From a virus (Duplodnaviria; Heunggongvirae; Uroviricota; Caudoviricetes): 5,928 bases of DNA. Below, piece after piece: positions 2,569 to 3,282 of this stretch. The stretch's first letter is position 1. Each line of letters begins with the position of its first letter. The notes beneath the pieces were generated by a model. It saw only the letters and a program-made list of their open reading frames with translations. It did no database searches and was not told where the DNA came from. Location of the stretch: the IMG/VR virus record IMGVR_UViG_2671181111_000001; one strand, given 5' to 3'. A program made the position numbers and the translations under genes.

Positions 2569-3282
2569 TTACCCTGCACTTTGACCACCAGTGAGCCAAT
2601 CGCCAGCTTGTTGCATCAATGATGGTTCTTCCCGTGTTGGTGCATTATTGGCCTGATTAACTGTTTGTTGCTGAACAGGTTTCGGTGCGACAGAACTTAC
2701 GGGTTGAGGTGGCTGCTGACTGGCTGCCTGCTGCTCAATCTGAGCAAATGGATTATTTGGGTCTGACTGCACACCTGATGCCGATACTTGTTCGGATGAC
2801 TGTACTTCCAGTTGTGCAAACGGGTTGTTAGGGTCTTGCTGAGGATGTACCTTTGCAGAGGTGGCGCGCTGTTCGACTGTTGAGTCTGTCACCGGGTCAC
2901 CAGCCCATTGAGCAAAGCGATCATCAACGTAACCGCGGCCTTCAGGTCCTGGCGTATATTCACCACGCTTTGCCTTCATAACGTTGCCGGGACCGTCGTG
3001 ATAAGCCTGAAGAGCGTCACGCCAGTTACCAAACTGCTGGTACATCTTTGCCAGATAGCGCGCGCCAGCGTCAGCCTGATATTCGGGGTTTTGCATTTGC
3101 TCATCGGTATAACCCATATCACGCCATGTCCCAGGCATGACCTGAGTCAATCCTACAGCCCCGGCGGAGCTTACTGCGGCAGGGTTGTAAGAAGACTCCT
3201 TGGCACCCAGTGCAGTCATCAACCCTTCTGGCACACCGTAACGTGCGCCAGCCTGCTCTAACAAATCACGGTAATTAGCCAT
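2569..3282 (-). CDS. Lytic transglycosylase (SLT family 1) domain protein with Q/P-rich C-terminal linker; virion-associated peptidoglycan hydrolase candidate
   Basis: 237-aa ORF carrying the three family-1 SLT motifs in the correct order and spacing: AKESSYNP (catalytic Glu, residue 29), GLTQVMPGTW (GLMQ-type) and AYHDGPGN (AYNAG-type). The C-terminal ~100 aa are low-complexity Q/P/S-rich with a duplicated DPNNPFAQ(L/I)E motif. The ATG at 3282..3280 directly abuts the TAA of the upstream ORF (TAAATG), with GGGG just upstream. Confidence 0.75.
   Translation of the reverse strand: MANYRDLLEQAGARYGVPEGLMTALGAKESSYNPAAVSSAGAVGLTQVMPGTWRDMGYTDEQMQNPEYQADAGARYLAKMYQQFGNWRDALQAYHDGPGNVMKAKRGEYTPGPEGRGYVDDRFAQWAGDPVTDSTVEQRATSAKVHPQQDPNNPFAQLEVQSSEQVSASGVQSDPNNPFAQIEQQAASQQPPQPVSSVAPKPVQQQTVNQANNAPTREEPSLMQQAGDWLTGGQSAG

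Follow-up and report, generated by a model that had tools for sequence, protein, structure and literature searches.

The window, by which we mean the complete stretch of 5,928 nucleotides that was analysed, represents a whole contig and covers part of an SfX-type (gtrX) serotype-converting P22-like prophage, with Shigella flexneri as the probable host according to the named cluster members and the gtrX gene. The features of the window are given below by position, with the strand in brackets.

1..147 (minus): 5' end of the tailspike gene (P22 head-binding domain), which in sister contigs encodes a 570-aa protein and is followed by gtrX-gtrB-gtrA
236..529 (plus): Mnt/Arc-type ribbon-helix-helix repressor of 97 aa (PF11423, PF03869), an immI remnant, convergent with gp16
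547..2622 (minus): body of gp16 (P22 gene 16 family), its conserved core beginning at residue 221 (SLMQQAGDW...) and its natural stop being 547..549; cut at 2569..2571
2569..2571 (minus): codon 238 as a premature ochre stop (TAA), for which intact relatives have CAA (Gln); equivalent to Gln70 of P22 gp16
2569..3282 (minus): ORF of 237 aa plus stop, holding the SLT domain
2623..2898 (minus): Q/P-rich low-complexity linker, residues 129-220; AF2 pLDDT 44-65, mostly disordered by prediction
2899..3282 (minus): SLT (family-1 lytic transglycosylase) catalytic domain, residues 1-128 of the fused gp16
3283..4614 (minus): gp20-type ejection protein of 443 aa (PF16928, E=2.6e-67; phrog_2534)
4624..5316 (minus): gp7-type ejection protein of 230 aa (PF25688, E=1.8e-134)
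5319..5774 (minus): gp14-type head assembly protein (DUF2824) of 151 aa (PF11039), according to sister-contig gene calls
5774..5863 (minus): 3'-terminal 30 codons (stop included) of the tail-needle-knob gene (gene 26), aligned to the 3' end of gene 26 in the E. coli CFSAN064035 prophage
5864..5928 (no strand assigned): terminal 65 nt of IS911 (IS3 family), ending in ...GTGCCACTTCA; the contig breaks within IS911

The P22-type ejection cassette that had been recognised in a preliminary description of this locus was confirmed by the gp7 (PF25688) and gp20 (PF16928) genes and a gp16 homolog. The gene order 14-7-20-16-(immI)-9 is common to the window, P22 and HK620, and the gp16 homolog lies between gene 20, which it directly follows, and the immI/tailspike region. 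A 197-aa ORF starting with GTG was discarded for the gp14-type gene as over-extended in view of the sister-contig gene calls. The gene 26 end of the window (5' with respect to the minus-strand genes) was also considered as a merely divergent allele of the needle gene, and this assignment was rejected, as alignment showed an IS911 terminus joined to the last 30 codons of gene 26. The IS911 end is 100% identical in alignment up to the IS terminus. In strain 90-1 it adjoins an IS911 transposase gene, and a 79-nt query containing this end matched 7,732 places in 4,020 E. coli genomes. The gtrX gene of the sister contigs is 97.2% identical to L05001, and gtrB and gtrA lie beside the tailspike gene.

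The 237-aa ORF starts with an ATG (3282..3280) that directly abuts the TAA stop codon (3285..3283) of the gp20-like gene, and the resulting sequence CAG-TAA-ATG agrees with the TAAATG junction described earlier. The product had been assigned a canonical family-1 SLT domain with ES, GLMQ-type and AYNAG-type motifs, and this assignment held. The Pfam profile SLT (PF01464) matches residues 7-110 with 91.1 bits (E=4.6e-26), above the curated threshold of 21.3 bits, and the motifs are present as E29-S30 (ES), G44-L-T-Q47 (GLTQ) and A93-Y-H-D-G97 (AYHDG). In an alignment of 36 SLT proteins the residues E29, S30, G44, Q47, Y94 and G97 are invariant, and position 95, which is Asn in at least 90% of the sequences, is occupied by His in the window protein. 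The SLT/lysozyme-like fold was recovered by the profile search as anticipated, and a phmmer alignment placed E29-S30 on E478-S479 of Slt70 (1qsa_A), E478 being the catalytic Glu. The AF2 model yielded block-mean pLDDT values of about 79-98, mostly above 90, for residues 1-130, and the top Foldseek matches, all with a probability of 1.00, were Slt70, Slt of P. aeruginosa, LtgA (5o1j_A/5mpq/6h5f), MltE and gp16 of T7. As judged from the model, the 237-aa ORF carries a canonical lysozyme-like all-alpha SLT fold, and its product is a predicted member of the family-1 lytic transglycosylases with Glu29 as putative catalytic residue. The best match in sequence as well as in fold was E. coli Slt70 (PDB 1qsa/1qte), which has the ES, GLxQ and AYxxG motifs in common with the window protein; however, Slt70 works as a housekeeping enzyme in the periplasm and has a signal peptide and a large superhelical N-terminal domain, whereas in the window the catalytic domain alone heads a virion protein. 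Neither a signal peptide nor a membrane anchor was found at the N-terminus of the SLT protein (MANYRDLLEQAG...). The linker contains two copies of DPNNPFAQ(L/I)E, seen at the protein level only, and Tandem Repeats Finder detected no DNA tandem repeat in 2500..3300. The last 17 residues of the 237-aa ORF (SLMQQAGDWLTGGQSAG) belong to the conserved gp16 core that is common to the gp16 proteins of P22 and HK620.

A separate SLT gene between the gp20 and gp16 genes, as proposed in the preliminary description, was not found. The 237-aa ORF and the next ORF (2520..547, 657 aa) are in one frame, the interval from 3282 to 2520 amounting to 762 nt or 254 codons, and the only stop between them is the TAA of codon 238. 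The apparent gene boundary is a CAA to TAA nonsense change, the codon being CAA in Sf101, APC_JM3.2 and Dewey, and it replaces the bracketed Gln in the segment GGQSAG[Q], which is near-identical in the gp16 proteins of P22 and HK620; the lost Gln falls in the most conserved segment of gp16. The frame is open for 673 codons 3' of the stop, and this part of the window differs from Sf101 by 16 synonymous and 4 non-synonymous codon differences. Over 911 codons, the read-through translation of 3282..547 shows 99.1% identity to Sf101 gp13. Both halves of the split gene are covered by PHROG 21143, on which they are collinear (profile positions 1-237 being matched by the 237-aa piece and 255-573 by the next ORF), and both are matched by PF26808 (Phage_P22_gp16) in precomputed Pfam annotations. 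The local Pfam collection gave no match for the gp16 bodies of P22, HK620 or the window, the newer PF26808 being available in the precomputed annotations only. The gp16 body of the window additionally matches phrog_770 (E=1.4e-120); by BLASTP, residues 221-353 are 81% identical to residues 53-189 of P22 gp16, and the body is 34% identical to HK620 gp16 over 635 alignment columns. The call of the 657-aa product begins at a TTG that represents an internal Leu of the conserved core (DV-L-QGG) and is preceded by ACCATTTGACGTA, without a purine run resembling a Shine-Dalgarno sequence. This TTG at 2520 is the sole in-frame ATG, GTG or TTG shortly 3' of the stop. An open downstream frame with few non-synonymous changes leaves room for restart or read-through, and a recent mutation explains the same pattern.

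In Sf101 and APC_JM3.2 the same 2,736 bp form one CDS, deposited for Sf101 gp13 (AII27837.1, 911 aa) under the name 'transglycosylase', and single CDSs of 875 aa, 797 aa and 922 aa are present in Dewey, phiKp_30 and E. coli CFSAN064035, respectively. The E. coli copies are named 'lytic transglycosylase domain-containing protein' in the RefSeq annotation. A homolog search with the 237-aa query returned mostly 'partial' representatives truncated at contig ends, and the fusion was read from annotated phage and E. coli loci. Codon 238 is no stop, and the SLT ORF runs on into gp16, in each of the eight relatives examined (Sf101, APC_JM3.2, Dewey, phiKp_30, IME10, E. coli CFSAN064035, E. coli FDN-9 and S. 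flexneri P0012), of which FDN-9 is an annotated pseudogene lacking the C-terminus and P0012 a partial protein cut at the contig end; an own stop and a separate downstream start, as would be expected for a free-standing gene, are kept in none of them. The proposed survey of free-standing versus fused SLT domains thus came out on the side of fusion: in intact copies of the gene, the SLT domain invariably makes up the N-terminal module of gp16. At least three different gp16 bodies are linked to this module, and the junctions fall within the linker in a comparison of Sf101, Dewey, phiKp_30, IME10, HK620 and P22. Among 5,426 complete E. coli genomes, 68 contain the SLT module, and the cassette of SLT domain plus linker is near-invariant in them (at least 98.7% nucleotide identity). 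Sf101 gp13 resembles the window copy in its position after gene 20, in the TAA-ATG junction and in the Mnt-like and tailspike genes downstream, whereas the window has the Gln238 to ochre change in an IS-disrupted SfX-type prophage and Sf101 is a viable phage.

The TAA allele was present in all ten contigs that were compared, each from a different sample and including the window, out of 21 contigs reported by the look-up to carry the product. The nine others (ERR6004933, SRR36238631, GCA_003038775.1, ERR6005399, SRR31272049, SRR36117202, ERR5896675, ERR126992 and SRR33842918) come from different runs and assemblies; eight of the gene sequences are identical to that of the window and the ninth differs at a single base. 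Gln238 is kept in other S. flexneri contigs. The TAA allele is real and clonal. Accordingly, an error of sequencing or assembly, by which the true codon would be CAA and the gene intact, was rejected: the relatives do differ by a single base only, but the identical TAA recurs in nine further contigs from different samples, and the chance of such an error is negligible.

We therefore regard the 237-aa ORF as the 5' part of one 911-codon SLT-gp16 gene in which a C to T change converted Gln238 (CAA) into an ochre codon, with a probability of about 0.9. Since TAA stands at codon 238 where the relatives show CAA, the copy lacks the uninterrupted reading frame of the P22 gp16 family and is a recently inactivated pseudogene of that family within a defective prophage, the second lesion of which is the IS911 element breaking the tail-needle gene. 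Translation in the window would end after the SLT domain, the linker and 17 residues of the gp16 core, and hardly any gp16 body, if any, would be produced, as there is no convincing restart site 3' of the stop. P22 particles without E-proteins fail to deliver DNA (PMC10883804), and by analogy with P22 16- mutants, particles from the window prophage would be non-infectious.

Two genuine genes, i.e. a free-standing 237-aa SLT protein and a separately initiated gp16-like protein, are what the mechanically defined ORFs and the gene callers applied to public contigs (237-aa and 657-aa products) appear to indicate, and the downstream frame is intact. This reading is very unlikely and has already been largely refuted by the start of the 657-aa product at an internal Leu TTG of the conserved core without Shine-Dalgarno-like purines, by the position of the stop inside a segment conserved in the gp16 proteins of P22, HK620 and Sf101, and by the relatives examined, which have one fused CDS with CAA except for the C-terminally truncated FDN-9; the IS911 lesion in gene 26 also counts against it. 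Programmed or suppressor-dependent read-through, yielding a short SLT protein along with the full-length SLT-gp16, would fit the perfectly preserved and collinear downstream frame. It is nevertheless highly improbable, as no recoding signal is evident, the intact plaque-forming relatives simply carry CAA, and the allele is limited to one clonal set of contigs with an IS-disrupted prophage. UAA is, moreover, the most efficient terminator in bacteria.

The SLT domain might instead act as a murein enzyme at the lysis stage or be expressed from the prophage, without being an ejected virion enzyme. SLT domains do occur in endolysins, as indicated by matches of the domain to phrog_669 and phrog_10475, and the truncated product lacks the gp16 body that packaging might need. 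Against this very unlikely function stand the N-terminus devoid of signal peptide and membrane anchor, the covalent fusion to gp16, seen in all of the intact genomes that were examined and located where gene 16 lies in the late virion operon, and the structural analogue, the N-terminal domain of T7 gp16, which is an ejected enzyme. There is also a very slight chance that the ochre allele is alive: from the prophage, the S. flexneri lineage may be producing the 237-aa SLT protein in soluble form, either by itself or alongside a gp16 fragment arising from a restart, and the host may have co-opted this SLT protein. If so, the protein could serve in murein remodelling or in the release of cell contents, and the split would be domestication instead of decay. 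A milder variant, sharing that same very slight chance, takes the SLT domain plus linker as a mobile N-terminal module that would give P22-like ejectosomes a murein-cutting activity of their own, contradicting the published statement that these phages lack murein cutting.

For the intact relatives of the pseudogene a role in DNA delivery may be proposed. SLT-gp16 would be part of the capsid contents, along with gp7 and gp20, and would be ejected into the periplasm upon infection. There the SLT domain, using Glu29 as acid/base, would make local cuts in the glycan strands. These cuts would let a gp20/gp16 conduit cross the murein layer, and the body of gp16 would make contact with the inner membrane. 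The whole scheme would parallel that of T7 gp16, for which local murein cutting during ejectosome assembly is presumed. In T7, an N-terminal SLT-fold domain is likewise carried by the largest and last-encoded ejection protein. Of the previously suggested ejected murein cutter resembling T7 gp16, the placement of an SLT domain on an ejection protein stands for the intact relatives, in the layout of T7 gp16, and the free-standing protein does not. The chains of T7 gp16 among the Foldseek matches were 7eyb_I, 7k5c_B and 9jyy_I, the last with a probability of 1.00, 27% identity and an rmsd of 2.9 over 133 alignment columns. At the sequence level no similarity to T7 gp16 was detected outside the SLT domain and linker: phrog_342, the sole match to a T7-type profile, spans residues 3-224 of the 237-aa product and is absent from the four families matched by the gp16 body. 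By analogy, SLT-gp16 would parallel the N-terminal part of T7 gp16 in function, yet it falls outside the T7 gp16 family. The N-terminal transglycosylase of T7 gp16 is required where the peptidoglycan is highly cross-linked (PMC8954989). For the transglycosylase motif of T7 gp16, a defect of a conditional kind is reported (Moak & Molineux 2000).

The gp16 proteins of P22 (609 aa) and HK620 (722 aa) share the core with the window from SLMQ(Q/R)AGD onward, but begin with N-terminal modules that are unrelated and short (about 52-59 aa), whereas the window has an SLT domain of about 128 aa and a linker of about 90 aa. A Pfam search detected no muralytic domain in gp7, gp20 and gp16 of P22, as had been stated beforehand, nor in the N-terminus of HK620 gp16. 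Since P22 manages without an SLT domain, and gp4 is the only virion lysin reported for it (PMC5380687), the domain is probably conditionally useful rather than essential. A related arrangement is found in the 'DNA transfer protein' (977-1007 aa) of Skarpretter (Skarprettervirus) and IME_EC2 (Murrayvirus), which has near its N-terminus an SLT domain 58-67% identical to that of the window. The cassette order is the same (needle, gp14-like, gp7, gp20, SLT-bearing protein in the gp16 position, tailspike), but in these phages the SLT domain starts about 35-40 residues into the protein, the protein bodies diverge and are of larger size, and the gene is uninterrupted.

The surmise that the architecture may already be known proved correct: SLT-gp16 is already annotated in Sf101, APC_JM3.2, Huey, Dewey, phiKp_30, IME10 and E. 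coli prophages and is represented by PHROG 21143. The window copy is therefore an ordinary pseudogene, with nothing new in the window itself. In the literature naming both Sf101 and transglycosylase, the combination occurred only as a mention in gene lists or referred to an unrelated DNA-modifying enzyme. With respect to annotation, the calls of a 237-aa 'lytic transglycosylase' and a 657-aa 'hypothetical protein' should be combined and marked as a single pseudogene, and the split copy marks a defective SfX-type serotype-converting prophage lineage. According to a review from 2022, P22-like phages are without such a transglycosylase activity. The modest point to be made, contrary to that review, is that a subset of Lederbergvirus along with Skarpretter and IME_EC2 carries a T7-gp16-like N-terminal transglycosylase, as predicted from sequence and fold, on gp16. 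The plaque-forming phages Sf101, Huey and Dewey, which have SLT-gp16, and their close relatives HK620 and CUS-3, which are without it, represent a natural test system for an ejected muralytic domain.

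The virion genes of the window are all located on the minus strand and occur in the same order as in phage P22. The following features were recognized:

5928..5864: IS911 (IS3-family) terminus, 65 nt
5863..5774, minus strand: remnant of gene 26 (tail-needle-knob), last 30 codons including the stop
5774..5319, minus strand: gp14-like gene (DUF2824), ATG at 5774, 151 aa
5316..4624, minus strand: gp7 (PF25688, E=1.8e-134)
4614..3283, minus strand: gp20 (PF16928, E=2.6e-67)
3282..2569, minus strand: ORF with a family-1 lytic transglycosylase (SLT) domain, 237 aa
2733-2834, minus strand: pair of DPNNPFAQ(L/I)E motifs, residues 150-183 of the SLT ORF
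2520..547, minus strand: 657-aa ORF matching gp16 'DNA transfer protein' families
236..529, plus strand: Mnt/Arc-type repressor gene, 97 aa
147..1, minus strand: tailspike gene, first 49 codons, P22 head-binding domain

The start codon of gp14 overlaps the stop codon of gene 26 (TGATG); a 197-aa GTG ORF at 5319-5912 (minus strand) in the mechanical ORF list was rejected as an over-extended gp14, the real start being the ATG at 5774. The Mnt/Arc-type ribbon-helix-helix gene stands alone between gp16 and the tailspike gene, divergent from the latter and with neither arc nor ant. A perfect 9-bp inverted repeat, ATGCAATCA-N5-TGATTGCAT, at 173-195 within the 88-bp divergent region (intergenic 148-235) could be the operator of the encoded protein. 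Homologues are named 'partition protein ATPase' or 'chromosome segregation ATPase' in PHROGs and GenBank, labels that look like a propagated misannotation.

The preliminary description had placed a canonical SLT domain in a 237-aa ORF at 2569-3282, joined to the upstream gene by a TAAATG junction. The ORF is present at these coordinates, and the TAA of gp20 directly abuts its ATG (CAG-TAA-ATG). Comparison with Pfam PF01464 yielded 91.1 bits (cut-off 21.3; E=4.6e-26) over residues 7-110. The best PDB sequence match detected by phmmer was Slt70 (E=5.4e-10), with Glu29-Ser30 aligned to the catalytic Glu478-Ser479, and an alignment with 35 diverse SLT proteins identified E29, S30, G44, Q47, Y94 and G97 as invariant columns. 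In the AlphaFold2 model, residues 1-130 have block-mean pLDDT values of about 79-98 (most exceed 90) and residues 131-237 are of low confidence (44-65). A Foldseek search of the PDB with this model returned Slt70 (33% identity), P. aeruginosa Slt, LtgA and MltE as well as three chains of T7 gp16 (7eyb_I, 7k5c_B and 9jyy_I), all with a probability of 1.00. The SLT assignment is robust: of the two outcomes that the preliminary description had named as refuting it, neither occurred, the fold being recovered by profile searches and the catalytic glutamate being aligned, and both domain identity and catalytic motif are established.

The claim that this domain is encoded by a separate gene between the gp20-like and gp16-like genes did not hold. 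The SLT ORF and the next ORF share one frame, and the translation of 3282..2401 is continuous except for a single stop. In phage Sf101, 97.9% identical in nucleotide sequence to a 1,101-bp query that includes the stop codon, the corresponding 2,736 bp form one CDS of 911 aa deposited as 'transglycosylase'; phage APC_JM3.2 likewise contains a single CDS and phage Dewey one of 875 aa. At codon 238 these three phages read CAA (Gln) and the window TAA, and in the DNA alignment the difference comes down to one C->T substitution. PHROG 21143 is collinear with both pieces, the 237-aa piece matching positions 1-237 of the profile and the next ORF positions 255-573; the 17 unmatched positions represent the stop and the 16 codons preceding the mechanical TTG 'start'. 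PF26808 (Phage_P22_gp16) is assigned to both pieces in the precomputed Pfam annotation of public contigs. The stop is located within the most conserved gp16 stretch, (E)PSLMQ(Q/R)AGD(W/L)..., which is near-identical in P22 gp16 (from residue 53) and HK620 gp16 (from residue 60), and the lost Gln corresponds to P22 gp16 Gln70; gp16 sequence therefore already makes up the final 17 residues of the '237-aa protein'. The only in-frame ATG, GTG or TTG codon shortly past the stop is the TTG at 2520, which encodes a Leu within the conserved core and is not preceded by a Shine-Dalgarno-like sequence. The ORF boundary at codon 238 is a nonsense mutation and not a gene boundary. Since the gp16 frame downstream of the stop is open for 673 codons and differs from Sf101 by 16 synonymous and 4 non-synonymous codons, the mutation is recent.

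The exact 237-aa product is recorded for 21 contigs, of which ten from different samples were compared; one of the ten is the window itself (GCA_000565965.1, AZPD01000125.1, 5,928 bp). All nine others carry the TAA, eight with an identical 2,736-bp gene and one with a single-base difference, which rules out a sequencing error as its source and speaks for a single clonal lineage. Nearly all named members of the 90% cluster to which the product belongs are from Shigella flexneri, which is probably the host of the window contig. Other S. flexneri contigs retain Gln at position 238 (cluster members P0002, P0005, P0012 and P0031). In the Gln238-keeping set P0002, P0004-P0006 and P0010-P0013, the SLT-gp16 proteins all end at contig ends after 453-511 residues and most contigs are about 12.3 kb long, which suggests that the gp16 body of that lineage carries a different lesion, due to a repeat or an IS.

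Past the cassette, the longer sister contigs (contigs of other samples with the exact product) encode a 570-aa tailspike, followed by a 421-aa gene 97.2% identical to SfX gtrX (L05001) and by gtrB and gtrA. The prophage is therefore P22-like, serotype-converting and of the SfX type, and the relevant sister loci (L004 5746-10079 and L006 8893-9215) appear to be its virion-gene end. SfX is present in the phage collection as a 1.7-kb record only, and another IS transposase fragment (rve) lies at the end of one sister contig. Positions 5928..5864 of the window are 100% identical to the IS911 terminus, ending ...GTGCCACTTCA, as found in E. coli strain 90-1; a 79-nt query containing this end matched 7,732 places in 4,020 E. 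coli genomes. IS911 is inserted 30 codons (stop included) short of the gene 26 end, and all sister contigs break inside the same element. The prophage is thus defective independently of the gp16 stop, and the feature under study is a copy of a known SLT-gp16 fusion, interrupted by a nonsense mutation and located in a prophage undergoing decay.

The intact fusion is already known at the annotation level, as the preliminary description had allowed: the window gene shows 99.1% protein identity to the Sf101 'transglycosylase' entry (KJ832078), RefSeq lists the E. coli copies as 'lytic transglycosylase domain-containing protein', and one PHROG family spans the fusion. An SLT-plus-linker module, about 205-220 aa long, precedes gp16 bodies of at least three different types:

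Type 1: Sf101 / APC_JM3.2, 911 aa
Type 2: Huey / Dewey, 875 aa, HK620-like C-terminus
Type 3: phiKp_30 / IME10, 797 aa, unannotated in IME10

In phage IME10 (NC_019501), an open 797-codon SLT-gp16 ORF is located at 3619-6012 directly after gene 20, and the stretch of the RefSeq record examined lists no feature past gene 20; a 'hypothetical protein' of phiKp_30 is of the same type. By contrast, P22 gp16 and HK620 gp16 carry short unrelated N-terminal modules of about 52 and 59 aa, respectively. Pfam detects no muralytic domain in these two proteins or in P22 gp7 and gp20, so that the initial premise about the P22 ejection proteins was right.

Among 5,426 complete E. coli genomes, 68 contain the SLT module, chromosomally and in one copy each, with nucleotide identities of at least 99% in 67 and of 98.7% in the remaining one. 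The two E. coli loci examined comprise a fused 922-aa CDS (strain CFSAN064035) and a truncated pseudogene. In the CFSAN064035 prophage, the intact 922-aa SLT-gp16 gene is closely followed downstream by a further 'lytic transglycosylase domain-containing protein' gene (6896-7380), an N-terminally truncated pseudogene that may be a partial duplication or recombination scar. The next-closest phage SLT domains in a tblastn survey are 58-67% identical and belong to phages of about 40-42 kb, including Skarpretter, IME_EC2, Lumpael, 'sort...' phages, C130_2, IME279 and Kosakonia phages; Skarpretter and IME_EC2 encode it near the N-terminus of their 'DNA transfer protein' (977-1007 aa), which occupies the gene 16 position in the same cassette. 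The fusion architecture is established by the intact genes, and no cassette examined contained a free-standing SLT gene. In the linker, DPNNPFAQ(L/I)E occurs twice at a spacing of about 24 residues, ahead of a Q/P-rich stretch; no tandem repeat was detected in the underlying DNA. All SLT-gp16 proteins examined share this motif, which may act as a short docking site.

In intact relatives, the fused SLT-gp16 protein would be packaged and ejected as P22 gp16 is. In the periplasm, the SLT domain would cut glycan strands locally while the gp16 body would proceed to the inner membrane, and the long linker, for which disorder is predicted, would give the enzyme the reach from the conduit to the murein. 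This arrangement parallels the one described for T7 gp16, the N-terminal transglycosylase of which is required where the peptidoglycan is densely cross-linked (PMC8954989). The original observation was confirmed in part and its interpretation supported in part: an ejected, locally murein-cutting protein is plausible for intact SLT-gp16, not for a separate 237-aa protein. The window product should be a ~26-kDa SLT-linker fragment devoid of the gp16 body, and the analogy with P22 16- particles predicts that any virions from this allele would be non-infectious. In the literature covered, SLT-gp16 occurs in gene lists only; a 2022 review states that P22-like phages lack this activity, and gp4 is the only P22 protein named in a review of virion-associated lysins (PMC5380687). 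The sole wider value of the fusion is that of an under-discussed natural variant with which the role of an ejected muralytic domain can be tested in P22-like phages.
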